64,000 nucleotides of DNA from Escherichia phage vB_EcoM-ZQ3: sequence record MW630116.1; one strand, 5' to 3'. Below, piece after piece: positions 34,342-40,895 of this stretch. Under the pieces are notes generated by a model. That model saw nothing but the letters and a program-made list of their open reading frames with translations, ran no database searches and had not been told where the DNA came from. The translations under genes were made by a program, and so were the position numbers. Positions within the stretch are counted from its first letter, which is position 1, and every line of letters starts with the position of its first letter.

Positions 34342-35076
34342 ATGGAGCTAATCTTTTTAAGCGGCATCAAACGTAGTGGTAAAGACACTACTGCCGATTA
34401 CATCAATTCAAACTTTAAATCCGTAAAATACCAATTGGCATATCCTATTAAAGACGCTCTAGCAATAGCCTGGGACCGTAAACATGCCGAAAACCCTGAT
34501 GTATTCACTGAGTTGAAATATGAATACTTTGAAGGTGTTGGATATGACCGTGAAACACCATTAAATCTCAATAAGTTGGATGTTATTGAATTATTAGAAG
34601 AAGCGCTAATTTATTTACAAAGTCAATATTTACCAATTAATAATGTTAAAGTATTATCATCATTAGAAGGTGGGTATTCATATCTAGATATTAAACCATA
34701 TGAAGCCCTGCGTGAAGCTATAAATAATATCAACGACACATGGTCAATCCGCCGTCTTATGCAAGCCCTCGGTACGGATGTTGTCGTTAATTTATTTGAC
34801 CGTATGTATTGGGTTAAACTTTTTGCATTAAACTATATGGATTATATTGGAAGTGATTTCGATTACTATGTTGTAACCGATACACGCCAAGTCCATGAAA
34901 TGGAAACCGCTAGAGCGATGGGTGCTACAGTTATTCATGTGGTTCGCTCTGGTACGGAATCCACTGATAAACATATTACAGAAGCTGGGTTGCCTATTGA
35001 AGAAGGCGATTTAGTTATTACAAACGACGGCTCTTTAGAAGAGCTTTATTCTAAAATTGAAACAATCTTAAGGTAA
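34342..35076 (+). CDS. 1: deoxynucleoside monophosphate kinase gp1
   Basis: 244 aa; P-loop LSGIKRSGKDT; matches recalled T4 gp1. Confidence 0.92.
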   Translation: MELIFLSGIKRSGKDTTADYINSNFKSVKYQLAYPIKDALAIAWDRKHAENPDVFTELKYEYFEGVGYDRETPLNLNKLDVIELLEEALIYLQSQYLPINNVKVLSSLEGGYSYLDIKPYEALREAINNINDTWSIRRLMQALGTDVVVNLFDRMYWVKLFALNYMDYIGSDFDYYVVTDTRQVHEMETARAMGATVIHVVRSGTESTDKHITEAGLPIEEGDLVITNDGSLEELYSKIETILR

Positions 35077-35080
35077 TAAA

Positions 35081-35766
<686 letters not shown>

Positions 35767-35778
35767 TTTAACAAAACA

Positions 35779-35814
35779 GTTTACATAAGGATGATGGCGT
35801 GTTACTATCATCCT
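35779..35814 (+). promoter_or_regulatory. early promoter cassette with palindrome
   Basis: GTTTAC...TACTAT with AGGATGAT/ATCATCCT inverted repeat flanking the -10. Confidence 0.5.
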
Positions 35815-35842
35815 ATCAAATAAACGACCTCAAGGAAATAAA

Positions 35843-36130
35843 ATGAAAACCTATAAAGAATTTATATCACCTGTTGCTAACGTTTCTACTCTGACCGAAG
35901 CAACCCTTACTTCCGAAGTTATTAAAGCAAATAAAGGACGTGAGGGTAAACCAATGATTAGTCTGGTTGACGGCGAAGAAGTAAAAGGTACTGTTTACTT
36001 AGGGGATGGATGGTCTGCTAAGAAAGATGGCGCTACTATTGTTATCTCTCCGGCTGAAGAGACTGCACTGTTTAAAGCTAAGCATATTTCTGTAGCTCAG
36101 CTTAAAATTGTTGCAAAAACTCTTCTGTAA
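35843..36130 (+). CDS. internal protein (IPI-like) with capsid-targeting N-terminus
   Basis: 95 aa; N-terminus MKTYKEF resembles T4 internal-protein capsid targeting sequence MKTYQEFIAE; position after 57B as T4 ipI. Confidence 0.7.
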   Translation: MKTYKEFISPVANVSTLTEATLTSEVIKANKGREGKPMISLVDGEEVKGTVYLGDGWSAKKDGATIVISPAEETALFKAKHISVAQLKIVAKTLL

Positions 36131-36133
36131 GTA

Positions 36134-36173
36134 GTTTACATGCTGATAGGACTATGTTATAGTAGTCCTATCA
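36134..36173 (+). promoter_or_regulatory. early promoter cassette with palindrome
   Basis: GTTTAC then GATAGGACTAT/ATAGTAGTCCTATC inverted repeat. Confidence 0.5.
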
Positions 36174-36199
36174 AATCAACAACCAAACGGAAAAAACAA

Positions 36200-36463
36200 A
36201 TGAAAACGTATAAAGAATTTATCGCTGAATCTCAATCTTCTACTCTGTCAGAGAACTACGAATCATTCTCTTACAACAACGACCATGCAATGTTCTACGA
36301 CCGAAACATCGGTACTTATGTCCATGTGTGGGGTGTTAAAGATGGTAACGTAGTTGTTAAGAAAAACTCTAAAGAAGGCAATGGTCGTGGCCAGGTAAAA
36401 ATTACCAGCAAGAAAGCTATCCAAGCTTACGTCGATTATGTTAAACGCGAAGCTGGTATTTAA
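36200..36463 (+). CDS. internal protein-like small protein with capsid-targeting N-terminus
   Basis: 87 aa from MKTYKEFIAE-SQSS; gp21-type cleavage context after Glu10. Confidence 0.6.
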   Translation: MKTYKEFIAESQSSTLSENYESFSYNNDHAMFYDRNIGTYVHVWGVKDGNVVVKKNSKEGNGRGQVKITSKKAIQAYVDYVKREAGI

Positions 36464-36465
36464 TA

Positions 36466-36505
36466 GTTTACATGATGATAGGACTATGTTATAGTAGTCC
36501 TATCA
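36466..36505 (+). promoter_or_regulatory. early promoter cassette with palindrome
   Basis: near-identical copy of cassette at 36134. Confidence 0.5.
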
Positions 36506-36525
36506 AAACATGAGAGGATAATAAA

Positions 36526-36711
36526 ATGAAACGCGCTGAACTGATTCGTAATGTTGCTGTAGTAATTGCTTCAATGGCTTTTAGTTTTTCGATGTTTGTA
36601 GGATTCATTTGTGGACTACTGACGACAACCGAAAACTCTATCTCATTGGTAGTGGCATTTCTAATCGGCTTAATCGCCATCGTTATGGATAAAATTGCAA
36701 AAGGTGAGTAA
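36526..36711 (+). CDS. small membrane protein (two predicted TM helices)
   Basis: 61 aa, hydrophobic; GAGAGGA RBS. Confidence 0.5.
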   Translation: MKRAELIRNVAVVIASMAFSFSMFVGFICGLLTTTENSISLVVAFLIGLIAIVMDKIAKGE

Positions 36712-36712
36712 A

Positions 36713-37075
36713 ATGAAATATCATGTATATGCTGATTTTGAAGCTAATCCTTCTAAAGACCCTGATTGTCGTTTGTTACGTGAACCGTTTGATTCAGCCA
36801 CAGAAGCATGGCACTGGATTAAATCTAAATCACCCGGTTATATGTTCTTTGAAGTAGTCGATGACAATGGTGCACTGCATCCAGCCCCTACGGAAACTAT
36901 TAATTTCCTTCTGTTTGCTGGTTATGAATACTATCCTTATGGTGGTATCGACGACCTTTACGCTAAAGGTAAAACTGTCGAAGCTCTTCGTGAAATATAT
37001 AAGAACGCTGAAGAAAATTTCGACTGGTACCATATTGTTAATGCCCATACCTTTGAAGTGGTGGAACATTCATGA
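36713..37075 (+). CDS. hypothetical protein
   Basis: 120 aa from MKYHVYADF; RBS AAGGTGAG; start overlaps upstream stop. Confidence 0.5.
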   Translation: MKYHVYADFEANPSKDPDCRLLREPFDSATEAWHWIKSKSPGYMFFEVVDDNGALHPAPTETINFLLFAGYEYYPYGGIDDLYAKGKTVEALREIYKNAEENFDWYHIVNAHTFEVVEHS

Positions 37076-37362
37076 TTCTTTATGCTAAAGTAAAATCTGT
37101 TGAGAATGGTTATGAAAGCGATCAGCAAGCAGCTAAAGCATTGGTCAATGATTACGGTATTTTGACTAACTTTGAAGTTGAAAAAGTTTACATCGACCGT
37201 TCATCTTCGCAGGTTAAATTACTCTGGGAAGACGGTAAATTTAATAGCGTGAATTTTGATTTCTTTATTGAAACAGAAAAAGGTCCTCTTGAATATGATA
37301 TTTTCAAGAATCCTTTGAAATTACGTTGCATTGAATATAATTACATTAATATGGTACGGTGA
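37072..37362 (+). CDS. hypothetical protein
   Basis: 96 aa; ATGA overlap with upstream gene. Confidence 0.5.
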   Translation: MILYAKVKSVENGYESDQQAAKALVNDYGILTNFEVEKVYIDRSSSQVKLLWEDGKFNSVNFDFFIETEKGPLEYDIFKNPLKLRCIEYNYINMVR

Positions 37363-37366
37363 GTAA

Positions 37367-37882
37367 ATGAATATTTGTTTAGGCAGTACAATTCCTAAGG
37401 GCTACGTAATTGATGTCACTACCTATGAAAATGATGGTGACAACTATAAAACCAAAACATTGTTTGAAGTGGAAGAGCATGAGCTCCAACAGTTTAAATA
37501 TCTCTTGAAGAAATTTAAGAGCCGTCATTCTAGCACTAAAGCCGAACGTTATTGCGGTAATACACCATTCAGTGATTGTTCGCTTTTAATCTATGAATAC
37601 TTGGTTGAAGGACTGTTCTCAGACCAGCTTTATCCAGAATTCATTAAAAAGGTCTTTGGTATCGAAGTTGACCTTGGTGACAAATCCGAAGAAGATGAAA
37701 CACGTGTATTCGACCTATTCTTTGAGAGCGGAGATGAGATATCTCAAGGACTTATTGATATTCTTGGCTATGCTTCTGAATACTATGATTACGATTTCTT
37801 GCGTGTAGTTGAACGTGTTGAATTCGCTTATATTGAAGAAGAAATTGTTTTGCCGACTGTTAAAATGATTGATTTGCTTTAA
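37367..37882 (+). CDS. hypothetical protein
   Basis: 171 aa, acidic. Confidence 0.55.
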   Translation: MNICLGSTIPKGYVIDVTTYENDGDNYKTKTLFEVEEHELQQFKYLLKKFKSRHSSTKAERYCGNTPFSDCSLLIYEYLVEGLFSDQLYPEFIKKVFGIEVDLGDKSEEDETRVFDLFFESGDEISQGLIDILGYASEYYDYDFLRVVERVEFAYIEEEIVLPTVKMIDLL

Positions 37883-37961
37883 GAATTATGTGTTATTATT
37901 AATTCATACCCTCTATTACCAAAGGTGCTCTAAAGTGCCTTTCATAATAGAAAGTTATTAA

Positions 37962-38036
37962 GGCCCTGTAGCTCAATGGGAGAGCTGTCAGCTCATAACT
38001 GATAGGTAGCTGGATCGAAACCAGCCAGGGTCACCA
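37962..38036 (+). tRNA. tRNA, anticodon CAT (Met or Ile2/lysidine)
   Basis: hand-folded cloverleaf: acceptor GGCCCTG/CAGGGTC, D stem GCTC/GAGC, anticodon loop CTCATAA, T arm GCTGG-ATCGAAA-CCAGC, encoded CCA. Confidence 0.8.
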
Positions 38037-38042
38037 AACAAA

Positions 38043-38114
38043 TGGTGCATCGTATAAAGGTTATTACGGGGAGCTGTTAACTCCTTTATCTTGGTTCGAG
38101 TCCAAGTGCGCCAG
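38043..38114 (+). tRNA. tRNA-Asn (anticodon GTT)
   Basis: acceptor TGGTGCA/TGCGCCA, anticodon stem GGGAG/CTCCT loop CTGTTAA, T arm CTTGG-TTCGAGT-CCAAG; D stem only 3 bp; no encoded CCA. Confidence 0.65.
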
Positions 38115-38188
38115 TAATTTAAACGAAGTAAATTAAGTGCTCTATCCAAATAATAAATACTCCTATATTTTATAGGAGATAATTGGTA

Positions 38189-38854
38189 ATGAGCATTTGT
38201 AAACATTGTAATATGGAATTTGATATTTCTAATAAACCTAAAGGATGGATGGCTAACCACACTAGATGGTGTAAATCCAACCCTAAATTGGAATTGTATA
38301 AAGAAAGTTCTAAATCAGCCATTGCAGCAATGAATAAAGCACGTATAGCTTCAGGTAATTTAAACCAGTATGTTGTATCTAAAAAGACTGGTGTCCCTGT
38401 AGTAATTTCGGAAGAGACTAGACAAAAATTGTCAGCCGCTTCATTAGGTAGAGAACACTCTGAGGAATCTAGAATAAAAATATCTAATGCTCGGAAAAAA
38501 TGGTTGAATGAAAACCCTGATAAACATCCTTGGAAGAAAAATACAAAATTTAAATCTGTGCCTTGTGAATTTTTGAAATCTAAATTAATAGAAAACGGAA
38601 TTTCATTTATTGAAGAATACCAACCGGTTAAAAACCGAGCGTATTGCACGGATATTGCTTTAATAGATAAAAAGATTATTATTGAAGTTAATGGAAACCA
38701 ACATTACTCCAATCCTAAGAAAAAGATTTTGGCCCCTTATTATAAAGAACGCCATGATATTATAAAATCATTAGGATGGGAAATATATGAACTTCATTAT
38801 GCTGAAGTTTATAAAGAAGATATTGTAAATAATTTAATTGCCTCTATAGTGTAA
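38189..38854 (+). CDS. putative homing endonuclease (Zn-finger / NUMOD3-like / C-terminal Vsr-DUF559-like nuclease domain)
   Basis: 222 aa from MSICKHC; CxxC...H..C N-terminus, NUMOD3-like ETRQKLSAASLGREHSEESRIKISNARKKW, C-terminal IIEVNGNQHY...D...GWEIYEL; located in tRNA cluster like T4 segB. Confidence 0.6.
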   Translation: MSICKHCNMEFDISNKPKGWMANHTRWCKSNPKLELYKESSKSAIAAMNKARIASGNLNQYVVSKKTGVPVVISEETRQKLSAASLGREHSEESRIKISNARKKWLNENPDKHPWKKNTKFKSVPCEFLKSKLIENGISFIEEYQPVKNRAYCTDIALIDKKIIIEVNGNQHYSNPKKKILAPYYKERHDIIKSLGWEIYELHYAEVYKEDIVNNLIASIV

Positions 38855-38915
38855 TGGATAGCATATAATCGTTCTAAGGTTAATGGTGAGAGTTCAAATC
38901 TTTCTAGAGGCACCA
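38840..38915 (+). tRNA. tRNA-Arg (anticodon TCT)
   Basis: acceptor GCCTCTA/TAGAGGC, anticodon stem TAATC/GGTTA loop GTTCTAA, T arm GAGAG-TTCAAAT-CTTTC, encoded CCA; overlaps last 15 nt of upstream ORF. Confidence 0.8.
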
Positions 38916-38933
38916 ACTTTAAGTGAGGAAAAT

Positions 38934-39278
38934 ATGAAAGGCAATATTTATTTGGTAGTTCATGATTTAACGTTTTATTTTAACGAACAGGATACAGTTA
39001 TTTCCGACCGGTTGATTAATTCGTTATATCAACACGCTGATTACGTTTATTTTCAAAATGAATTCGGACATTGGAAGTTTCTTAAAAACCGTTCCGGGTT
39101 AACTAGTTTTGAATACTTTGACCGTAAAGACCTTTTAAACGAAATTCCATTACAACATCGGTTCCAGAAACGCGAATCACTATACTATTGTCGCCATATA
39201 CCAAATGCTGAATGTGTTTATGAAGCGATTAATCTATGGCGTCGGCGTCGAGAGCAAATTGATGATATGCCAAAATAA
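38934..39278 (+). CDS. hypothetical protein
   Basis: 114 aa from MKGNIYLVVHDL; RBS GAGGAA; longer ORF start lies inside tRNA-Arg. Confidence 0.5.
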   Translation: MKGNIYLVVHDLTFYFNEQDTVISDRLINSLYQHADYVYFQNEFGHWKFLKNRSGLTSFEYFDRKDLLNEIPLQHRFQKRESLYYCRHIPNAECVYEAINLWRRRREQIDDMPK

Positions 39279-39279
39279 G

Positions 39280-39588
39280 AAGCCGGGTCGCTACCGGCAA
39301 GACGTCGGACTGATGTTCCCTGAGTAAGGATTGGTCTTAATAAATCTTTACGATTTGTTAATACCCCCTTACATCACAGCAGAAACGGCGCACAGAATTA
39401 TCGATTCGAGGAAATATCTTTGCCGTAAGCCGAGTAGCGTTTTTGACGGAACGTTCGGATATGGTCGAGATATGGCCTTTTAAAAATATTGAGTAGCGTC
39501 AACTGCTTAATAACCGGGTTCGAATCCCGGCGTTTCGTACAAACACTTACCTAGTAGGTGGAAACCCGACAAGGTTGCCGCAAGGCAT
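39280..39588 (+). ncRNA. ORF-free structured region, candidate small stable RNA(s) or decayed tRNA genes
   Basis: about 310 nt without ORF; hairpin GCCGG-GTCGCTA-CCGGC at 39282-39298; tRNA-like T arm CCGGG-TTCGAAT-CCCGG (39514-39530) with acceptor-like pairing CGGAACG/CGTTTCG but no canonical D/anticodon arms. Confidence 0.3.
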
Positions 39589-39617
39589 AGCCCCTTCCGA
39601 AAGGTTGGGGCTTTTTT
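39589..39617 (+). terminator. intrinsic terminator
   Basis: AGCCCCTTCC-GAAA-GGTTGGGGCT followed by TTTTTT. Confidence 0.55.
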
Positions 39618-39618
39618 G

Positions 39619-39626
39619 TATAAATA
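39619..39626 (+). promoter_or_regulatory. late promoter TATAAATA upstream of IP-like gene
   Basis: exact TATAAATA 36 nt upstream of ATG 39662. Confidence 0.45.
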
Positions 39627-39661
39627 TAGTAAACAATAAACCTACTTTCTAAGGACCATCA

Positions 39662-40282
39662 ATGTATACTTTTAATGAATTTTTAGCCGAAACGGAAGTA
39701 ATCACCGAAGCCGGCGTACGTATGACAAAAGAGAAATGGCAAGCTGCTTACGATGCTATTTCTGGTACAAAAACTAGTACAGAGTTTTTCAAAAACGTTC
39801 AAGCCATGTACGGTATCGACACTTCTAGCCAAAAAGAATATTACAGAGCTTCTAAAGCATTCAAAGATATTGTTAGTGGTGGTGTTTCTGCTAAATCGGG
39901 TTCGCCTAAAGTAAAACCTGCTCCTACCATTCCTAAACCTGCGACCCCTAAAGCAAAACCTGAGCCTAAGCCTGAAGTAAAAGCAACTCCTAAAGCTCCT
40001 GCTCTTAAGTTTGATACTTCTAGCCTGGAAAAAAAATATAAACAACTATCTTCGCTTGTTCGTGATATTGAATCCGATACATCTTCACTCGTTCGTGAAT
40101 TCAATATTCTTCGTAATGGCCAACATATCAACAACCTTGATACTCCAGACCTTTATCGTCTTTATTTGACTATCGAAGGTTTGAAGTATACTCAACCACT
40201 TCACGATGCGATTAAAGAAAAACTTCGTCAGGCAGGTCGTTTGGCTGCTGACGCTGCTCAGTATGCAAAAACTCGTAAGTAA
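39662..40282 (+). CDS. internal protein-like protein with capsid-targeting N-terminus and Pro/Lys-rich linker
   Basis: 206 aa; N-terminus MYTFNEFLAE-TE (variant of MKTYQEFIAE); low-complexity KPAPTIPKPATPKAKPEPKPEVK segment. Confidence 0.55.
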   Translation: MYTFNEFLAETEVITEAGVRMTKEKWQAAYDAISGTKTSTEFFKNVQAMYGIDTSSQKEYYRASKAFKDIVSGGVSAKSGSPKVKPAPTIPKPATPKAKPEPKPEVKATPKAPALKFDTSSLEKKYKQLSSLVRDIESDTSSLVREFNILRNGQHINNLDTPDLYRLYLTIEGLKYTQPLHDAIKEKLRQAGRLAADAAQYAKTRK

Positions 40283-40285
40283 AGA

Positions 40286-40305
40286 ATGGGGACTTCGGTC
40301 CCCAT
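40286..40305 (+). terminator. hairpin ATGGGGAC-TTCG-GTCCCCAT
   Basis: perfect 8-bp stem with UUCG loop immediately after stop of 39662 ORF; weak U-run. Confidence 0.4.
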
Positions 40306-40334
40306 TAGGGGGTCTATAACTTACTAAAAAAGTT

Positions 40335-40370
40335 GTTTACTTCTTCCCTAGTTGTGTTACTATAGTCCTA
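40335..40370 (+). promoter_or_regulatory. early promoter cassette
   Basis: GTTTAC-N17-TACTAT then conserved leader TTAAAACATGAGGAG. Confidence 0.5.
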
Positions 40371-40391
40371 TTAAAACATGAGGAGAATATT

Positions 40392-40895
40392 ATGAGTCTT
40401 TACACTGAACTGAATAAAAAATCTGAAGAATCCGCTGAAACTATTTTTAAAAACGTGCAAAAGCGTATTTTAGAAAAGATGTATAACACTGCAGCTAAAG
40501 GTGAAAAATCTTGCCGGTTTCCGATGAGGTGTTCTTCCGATTTATGCGCAAATACTATTGAATGGCTGGAAAGTGAAGGTCTTACGGTAGAGAAAAACCC
40601 GGCGTCTTCTATTGACAGTGAATCATATATTAGTATTTCTTGGGATAAATCAAGGGTAGAAGAGAAAGATGGTGATTGGGTTGTAGATGTTAAAACTTCT
40701 GATGGCGGACGTTCTGTTGAAGTTTCAGCTGTAGTTAAAGGTACCCACGAACAAAGGACTTGGGGTTGGGGTGGTGAAGAAAAAGAAATTGTTCTTAGTG
40801 TGATTGCCAGGTCAACTAGTAATAAAATTGCACAAAGCATCATTGACGCTGCAATTGCTGAAGCAGAAAAAATTTGCAAAATTAAAAATAAATGA
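40392..40895 (+). CDS. hypothetical protein
   Basis: 167 aa; GAGGAG RBS. Confidence 0.55.
   Translation: MSLYTELNKKSEESAETIFKNVQKRILEKMYNTAAKGEKSCRFPMRCSSDLCANTIEWLESEGLTVEKNPASSIDSESYISISWDKSRVEEKDGDWVVDVKTSDGGRSVEVSAVVKGTHEQRTWGWGGEEKEIVLSVIARSTSNKIAQSIIDAAIAEAEKICKIKNK

Follow-up and report, generated by a model that had tools for sequence, protein, structure and literature searches.

In the genome of Escherichia phage vB_EcoM-ZQ3 (record MW630116.1), an RB69/JS09-like Mosigvirus, the region from position 39275 to 39617 of the window (the whole stretch of 64,000 nucleotides analyzed here) very probably comprises the orthologs of the two small stable RNAs of phage T4, rnaD (39275–39394) and rnaC (39401–39539), placed at the 3′ end of the tRNA cluster and followed by a trailer and a terminator. 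We base the orthology of both RNAs on sequence identity and gene order. Two RNA genes and a terminator mark this region as the 3′-terminal part of the phage tRNA operon. The rnaC molecule is a derived tRNA, with a canonical T arm and acceptor stem and with long hairpins in place of the D arm and the anticodon arm. None of this is new in itself, and the stretch is ordinary for a T4-like phage; both RNAs have been known since the 1970s, when they were sequenced. The layout is given below, the mature RNA ends having been transferred from the T4 annotation.

37962–38915, + strand: tRNA genes Met (37962–38036), Asn (38043–38114), and Arg (38840–38915), called by ARAGORN and Rfam
39275–39394, + strand: rnaD ortholog (T4 species 2 RNA), about 120 nt, by alignment to T4 rnaD
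39395–39400, + strand: rnaD–rnaC spacer of 6 nt, GAATTA (AAATTA in T4)
39401–39539, + strand: rnaC ortholog (T4 species 1 RNA), 139 nt, tRNA-derived, by pairwise alignment to T4
39544–39586, + strand: structured 3′ trailer with hairpins at 39544–39560, 39563–39576, and 39577–39586 (GCAA loop), from the fold
39589–39617, + strand: intrinsic terminator of the tRNA/rnaD/rnaC operon, from fold and sequence

When compared with phage genomes by blastn, positions 39250–39670 match 807 records, nearly all of them T4-like phages of enterobacteria, the top match being Escherichia phage vB_EcoM_LNA2 (99.8%; Mosigvirus, species JS09). The T4 reference carries rnaC (“small, stable RNA; species 1 RNA”) and rnaD (“species 2 RNA”) immediately after tRNA-Arg, the homologous stretch of the RB68 and RB7 records is annotated as rnaD (“species II RNA”) and rnaC, and rnaC is annotated at the homologous place in ATK47. 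The gene order found here (tRNA-Arg, an ORF, rnaD, rnaC, terminator) is that of RB68 and ATK47, while T4 and RB7 lack the ORF. The sequence-only reading had listed T4 RNA C/D among several alternatives, which was right and even understated, with rnaC identical to its T4 counterpart at 137 of 139 positions (pairwise alignment, full length and end to end) and rnaD sharing 104 identical bases with the 119 nt of T4 (local alignment).

The sequence from 38400 to 40400 was read directly and its ORFs were listed. The region had been described as free of ORFs, and indeed only five ORFs of 25–50 aa, two of them with TTG starts, overlap 39280–39660; none longer than 50 aa lies inside this stretch and none spans it. 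Exactly three tRNAs are present in the whole window according to both ARAGORN and Rfam, as the earlier count of intact tRNAs had it, compared with eight in T4. No tRNA was called by ARAGORN or by Rfam (at gathering thresholds) in 39275–39620, neither program reported a tmRNA, and Rfam 15 has no family for rnaC or rnaD. A permissive Rfam scan of 39100–39800 (E up to 10) gave chance-level matches only, to tRNA-Sec, isrK, asX2, and the mascRNA T arm; the best of the tRNA type was tRNA-Sec, which scored 16.6 bits (E = 2.3) where the gathering score is 47, and the T-arm positions of the Rfam models coincide with the T arm of rnaC. The failure to fold canonical D and anticodon arms from the letters was likewise borne out, none having been found and the tRNA models staying below threshold.

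The 131-aa ORF at 38883–39278 (+ strand), between tRNA-Arg and rnaD, has no Pfam match, and its TAA stop (39276–78) falls inside the first bases of rnaD. An ORF at the same position, judged by position alone, is found in RB69 (RB69ORF150c), ATK47, and RB68, and is missing from T4 and RB7.

The two RNAs differ in how they vary. Identity of 99% or more is reached by rnaC in 490 of 745 matching records and by rnaD in 5 of 734. T4 rnaC (NC_000866, 70908–71046) resembles the window copy in its 139-nt length, its fold, and its position after rnaD and before the operon terminator, and it differs by two substitutions, C39466 (U in T4) and G39505 (A in T4), both of them in or beside a helix (U·C versus U·U in T4, and U-G versus U-A in T4). 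Our comparative alignment of rnaC comprises 24 distinct homologs from at least 11 annotated genera. Beyond the T4 and RB69 groups, homologs were found in Gaprivervirus, Karamvirus, Kanagawavirus, Winklervirus, Gelderlandvirus, Mosugukvirus, Moonvirus, and Marfavirus, as well as in phages that infect Edwardsiella, Kosakonia, and Erwinia. The gene is flanked by tRNA genes on both sides (e.g., tRNA-Trp, rnaC, tRNA-Gly) in Karamvirus, Winklervirus, Gelderlandvirus, and an unclassified Erwinia phage, and in Kanagawavirus IME523 it comes directly after a tRNA gene. The A/U-rich spacer that precedes rnaC in the window follows the CCA of the upstream tRNA in other genera. Such near-invariance of rnaC across genera points to a function under strong selection.

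A covariance model built only from the second sequence type, that is, from homologs of other genera, gave on the window a single match at exactly 39401–39539 (94.2 bits, E = 8.6e-23), the next-best match being the genuine tRNA-Asn with 16.5 bits. The absence of any covariance-model hit had been proposed as evidence against a structured RNA here, and on this point the outcome is divided, Rfam yielding nothing whereas the purpose-built model matches strongly. A metagenome scan with a T-arm/3′-end pattern retrieved mostly bacterial tRNA-Cys genes, and only 2 of its 29 loci were rnaC homologs; two IMG/VR loci obtained with the first degenerate pattern (L017 and L023) were discarded as chance matches. 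In the JS98-type loci L063, L083, L085, L091 (JS98), and L097, rnaC is absent and rnaD is fused directly to the start of the trailer with clean junctions.

The structure of rnaC was read from the variation among the 24 aligned homologs. Its elements in the window are as follows:

39402–39408, + strand: acceptor stem 5′ strand CGAUUCG, pairing with CGUUUCG at 39531–39537 across a tandem U·U
39414–39473, + strand: P2, a long irregular hairpin at the D-arm position, 96–100% of cells paired
39438–39442 with 39449–39453, + strand: apical 5-bp stem of P2, paired in every sequence, four of five pairs changed on both sides
39443–39448, + strand: P2 loop UUGACG
39474–39477, + strand: GGCC, of which C39476 and C39477 pair with G39411 and G39410 as the D-stem analog
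39487–39512, + strand: P3, a 10-bp hairpin at the anticodon-arm position, eight of ten pairs changed on both sides
39497–39502, + strand: P3 loop CGUCAA
39514–39530, + strand: T arm CCGGG-UUCGAAU-CCCGG, 98.3% of cells paired, one covarying pair
39531–39539, + strand: acceptor 3′ strand CGUUUCG, then U-A (U-CCA is encoded here in relatives)

Across the 24 homologs, pairing holds in 91.5% of cells, and both sides have changed in 16 pairs; none of 500 shuffles reaches the covariation score, and slid partners leave 33–44% paired. On the 13 sequences of the first type, to which the window belongs, the full structure is 93.9% paired. RNAalifold, applied to 11 second-type sequences in which the sequence of P2 differs, arrived independently at the same architecture, and the minimum-energy fold of the window rnaC alone gives it once again (single-sequence fold versus shuffled sequence, z = -4.55).

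The two ends of the RNA itself form the acceptor stem, which has 7 bp. At one pair most genera have G-C where the T4 group has A-U, and in phage PM2 another pair, C-G elsewhere, has become A-U and the tandem U·U has become U-A, U-A; the conserved tandem U·U is unusual for a tRNA. A different partner for the 3′ strand, CGGAACG at 39447–53, had been put forward from the sequence. It can indeed pair with CGTTTCG here, with one G·U, but the pairing is not conserved and the true partner is 39402–39408. When 39446/7–39453 was tried against the 3′ end over the homologs, one pair was mismatched in 16 of 24 and another in 10 of 24, none of them compensated, and these bases (39446–53) belong for the most part to the 3′ strand of the apical stem of P2 (39449–39453). 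A second candidate, pairing of the 5′ end of rnaC with the T loop (GATTCGA/TCGAATC), conflicts with the relatives that have a different T loop. The T arm CCGGG-TTCGAAT-CCCGG is present at 39514–39530 just as first described, and the G-C pairs of the D-stem analog are invariant or nearly so. The direct repeats noticed earlier are also there, GATATGG at 39458–64 and 39469–75 and GAGTAGCGT at 39432–40 and 39491–99. The two copies of GAGTAGCGT are the 5′ strands of two different helices and both copies of GATATGG lie on the 3′ side of P2; the short direct repeats belong to separate helices and do not make up a repeat system.

Just past the acceptor 3′ strand, U-ACA stands in the window, in T4, and in most other genera, while the Marfavirus group (L018, L019, L025, L034, L054, and L060) and PM2 (L009) encode U-CCA. 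The T4 annotation ends rnaC at ...GUA, at odds with the U-CCA encoded in these two lineages, and this encoded U-CCA suggests that the rnaC 3′ end is tRNA-like, either encoded or repaired.

The loops of P2 and P3 are exact complements of each other, UUGACG/CGUCAA in general and UUGGCG/CGCCAA in the Marfavirus group, and a 6-bp kissing contact is thus predicted that can form between them. At one pair of this contact, 18 sequences have A-U and the other 6 have G-C; four pairs do not vary at all, and the rest are invariant or nearly so, which amounts to one compensatory event in one clade together with strong conservation. A putative second contact involves the T loop. A non-canonical T loop (UGCAUGC or UGCAUCC) occurs in three rnaC copies, L005 and L024 (Kanagawavirus-type) and L010 (Winklervirus), and only in these three does C replace G39474, the G39474/U39520 pair being G·U in 20 sequences and C-G in 3. 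This is suggestive only, but it makes G39474/G39475 candidate partners of the T loop, in an elbow contact like that of G18/G19 with the T loop in tRNA.

For rnaD, the 20 distinct variants of our alignment give the following elements:

39282–39298, + strand: 5′ hairpin H1, 5-bp stem and 7-nt loop GUCGCUA, paired in 20 of 20 variants
39301–39393, + strand: rod, from the RNAalifold consensus
39301–39307 with 39386–39393, + strand: basal helix of the rod
39314–39317 with 39378–39381, + strand: second helix, with U-A changed to A-U in 6 sequences
39325–39329 with 39367–39371, + strand: third helix
about 39333–39365, + strand: variable central hairpin

The consensus is 98.1% paired, with five pairs changed on both sides, and none of 500 shuffles reaches its score; the fold of the window copy has z = -3.91 versus shuffled sequence. 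H1 is the hairpin GCCGG-GTCGCTA-CCGGC at 39282–39298 that had been picked out in the sequence-only reading, and its closing pair is A-U in 14 variants, G-C in 5, and G-U in 1. At the center of the molecule, three unrelated versions of differing length occur among phages and the flanks are almost invariant, so that the central hairpin behaves like a swappable module, to judge from the aligned sequences. Compared with T4 rnaD (NC_000866, 71053–71171), the window copy shares the position upstream of rnaC and an invariant or nearly invariant 5′ hairpin and 3′ segment. It differs by several substitutions in the central hairpin, by its 3′ end (...CACAG in the window, ...CACCA encoded in T4), and by the 131-aa ORF that separates it from tRNA-Arg, which T4 rnaD abuts.

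We have found rnaD only in T4-, RB69-, VR7-, and JS98-type sequences. Both motifs of the family, the 5′ hairpin and the 3′ segment CAGCNGAAACGGCGCAC, are present in the window; about half of the matches to the 3′ motif were unrelated G+C-rich sequences and were set aside. One locus (L062) has unrelated sequence after rnaD. The invariant loop of H1 plus one stem base, CGCUAC (39289–39294), is complementary to GUAGCG at 39434–39439 and 39493–39498 of rnaC. These GUAGCG copies sit inside the GAGTAGCGT repeat, and the rnaD loop is unchanged in phages that have no rnaC; the complementarity could be chance or a putative rnaD–rnaC contact.

Downstream of rnaC, the fold of 39540–39616 consists of three small, conserved hairpins followed by one that is G+C-rich (z = -4.03). 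The first trailer hairpin has A-U in the window where RB68 and T4 have G-C, and where phages have lost rnaC, the first 25 bases of the trailer (the portion read) adjoin rnaD. Since the start of the trailer is kept after rnaD without rnaC, it may have a processing or stability role of its own. The terminator consists of the G+C-rich hairpin at 39589–39611, with a GAAA loop, followed by TTTTTT (39612–39617). A simple terminator scanner missed it on the + strand because of a tandem U·U inside the stem, and the minus-strand terminator that the scanner reported is the rnaD hairpin, which we regard as an artifact.

Several other explanations of the region have to be weighed against two RNA genes. 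That it consists of decayed, non-functional remnants of a larger T4-type tRNA set, as had been suggested from the sequence, would fit its place next to the tRNA genes, the T arm and acceptor stem that it keeps, and the presence of three tRNAs here versus eight in T4. Yet rnaC is nearly invariant over hundreds of phages (as the 490 records at 99% or more attest) and carries many compensatory changes, homologs are kept in at least 11 genera, T4 itself has both RNAs at the same place along with all eight tRNAs, and rnaD gives no match to a tRNA model in Rfam even at E up to 10, all of which makes decay extremely improbable. It is very unlikely too that rnaC, or its 3′ 93 nt (39446–39538), is a highly atypical but decoding tRNA, another of the early suggestions. 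ARAGORN calls the equivalent 95 nt a tRNA-Phe(gaa) in Pet-CM3-4 and a tRNA-Met(cat) in PG7, the PG7 record annotates tRNA-Met there, and the weak tRNA-Sec match in the window points the same way. However, neither ARAGORN nor Rfam calls a tRNA here, the anticodons called disagree between close relatives, the acceptor pairing that such a tRNA requires fails in 16 of the 24 homologs, and the conserved fold, which keeps the acceptor stem and the T arm, has no anticodon arm with a 7-nt loop, the equivalent loop pairing instead with that of P2. We regard the ARAGORN calls in Pet-CM3-4 and PG7 as false and driven by the real T arm.

The label “hypothetical protein” that lies under the match in many records implies small protein-coding genes, and ORFs of 25–50 aa do overlap the stretch. 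These are short, though, with TTG starts in two of the five, and the substitutions track base-pairing and not codon structure; in relatives the center of rnaD is swapped for unrelated sequence of another length, and curated records of the T4 group annotate RNAs here, leaving the coding explanation with a practically negligible probability. A further explanation is a mere structured 3′ UTR and terminator of the ORF at 38883–39278, with no separate RNA products, given that the stop codon of this ORF lies in the first bases of rnaD and that the region ends in a terminator. But T4 and RB7 have tRNA-Arg directly before rnaD without any such ORF, rnaC is found between tRNAs in other genera, and these RNAs were validated in T4 by northern blot (PMC9697503), and so we hold this explanation to be very unlikely as well.

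The preferred reading is therefore that of orthologs of rnaD and rnaC, which all the features examined assign to the families of their T4 counterparts. Their expression and processing in this phage are proposed by homology to T4, where rnaC and rnaD derive from a dimeric precursor and where phages deleted for the tRNA region grow on laboratory hosts. In T4, both RNAs are classed as late RNAs, and a northern blot with an RNAC probe has been published (PMC9697503); it is for T4 alone that rnaC is reported as a discrete, stable RNA of about 140 nt in infected cells. Reviews and recent papers call the function of these RNAs unknown (PMC3014915, PMC9697503, PMC12685909). Our search of the literature on p2Sp1, species 1 RNA, and anti-defense roles found nothing on function, the original structure and processing papers of the 1970s–80s being outside its coverage. 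In an evolution experiment, every line that had adapted to one particular E. coli host carried the same rnaD SNP (PMC12685909).

As for how rnaC might be made and work, its acceptor/T-arm module would render it a substrate for host tRNA-maturation enzymes, with RNase P acting at the 5′ end and 3′ trimming, CCA addition, or repair at the other. Maturation of this kind would explain the excision of rnaC from the operon transcript and its stability, and fits the location of the gene between tRNA genes. We infer that rnaC cannot decode, since an anticodon arm is missing and the loop in its stead would be masked. One possible role, which we put forward tentatively, is that of a tRNA mimic that binds or titrates a tRNA-recognizing protein; the near-invariance of rnaC, including loops and linkers, argues for a close fit with a partner. 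A more specific version strikes us as rather doubtful, namely that rnaC would be a “self-masked” mimic, descended from a tRNA by insertion of a long hairpin into the D loop, the tip of this hairpin pairing with the anticodon-loop analog, matured by tRNA enzymes and acting as a decoy or sponge, with rnaD as a lineage-specific partner or an independent host-range RNA. The host-range link of rnaD in this version comes from the convergent SNP (PMC12685909). If it were true, the targets of the decoy might be a host tRNA-cleaving defense nuclease or a tRNA-processing or modification enzyme, and the self-masked mimic would constitute a Tevenvirinae-wide RNA family missing from Rfam.

In comparison with known systems, rnaC resembles tRNAs and tRNA-like RNAs in part. 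With canonical tRNA (RF00005) it has in common the 7-bp acceptor stem formed by its ends, the four-way junction layout, and the setting in a tRNA cluster, as well as a 5-bp T stem with the loop UUCGAAU immediately preceding the 3′ strand of the acceptor stem and, in some lineages, U-CCA. Unlike a canonical tRNA, it is 139 nt long, has no D or anticodon arm of normal size, contains the tandem U·U, and falls below the thresholds of tRNA models. In the tRNA-like domain of tmRNA, too, the ends of a longer RNA form an acceptor stem and T arm while the remainder takes the place of the anticodon arm, and tmRNA is likewise matured by tRNA enzymes; rnaC, in contrast, lacks a tag reading frame, the G3:U70 alanine identity pair, and a pseudoknot ring. 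In mascRNA and the bacterial YrlA Y RNAs, a tRNA-like module is used for processing or protein binding and not for decoding, but the T arm is the only part of rnaC that matches them in sequence or model (mascRNA: 14.2 bits, E = 7.9), and the two ends of YrlA pair as the Ro-binding stem and not as an acceptor stem.

These results settle the annotation of this part of the window, which is not junk, does not hold missing tRNAs, and does not encode small proteins; it holds two known RNA genes and a terminator. In many GenBank and RefSeq records of T4-like phages, rnaC and rnaD are unannotated or labeled as “hypothetical protein,” tRNA-Met, -Phe, -Lys, or -Arg, and the RefSeq record of RB69 has a gap at their place. 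Although both RNAs have been known for decades, papers from 2010 to 2025 assign them no function. What may be new is the comparative fold of rnaC with its predicted loop–loop contact, the breadth of its distribution over the Tevenvirinae, and its absence from Rfam together with the mislabeled records. The comparative structure leads to testable mutations in the true acceptor stem, the loop–loop contact, and the possible elbow contact.

Two further observations concern the flanks of the operon. Only 2 nt past the U tract of the terminator, at 39619–39626, there is a copy of the T4 late-promoter consensus TATAAATA, ahead of a 206-aa ORF at 39662, and this box probably serves that next gene. Eighteen copies of the motif occur in the window against 7.6 expected, and the + strand from 34727 to 39618, with the tRNA cluster and both RNAs, has no T4 late-promoter box. 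On the upstream side, the ORF at 38183–38854 (+ strand), between tRNA-Asn and tRNA-Arg, shows weak Pfam matches to NUMOD3 and DUF559/RAP endonuclease-type domains. It looks like a homing endonuclease located at the position of T4 segB and of a different kind, T4 segB being annotated as GIY-YIG.
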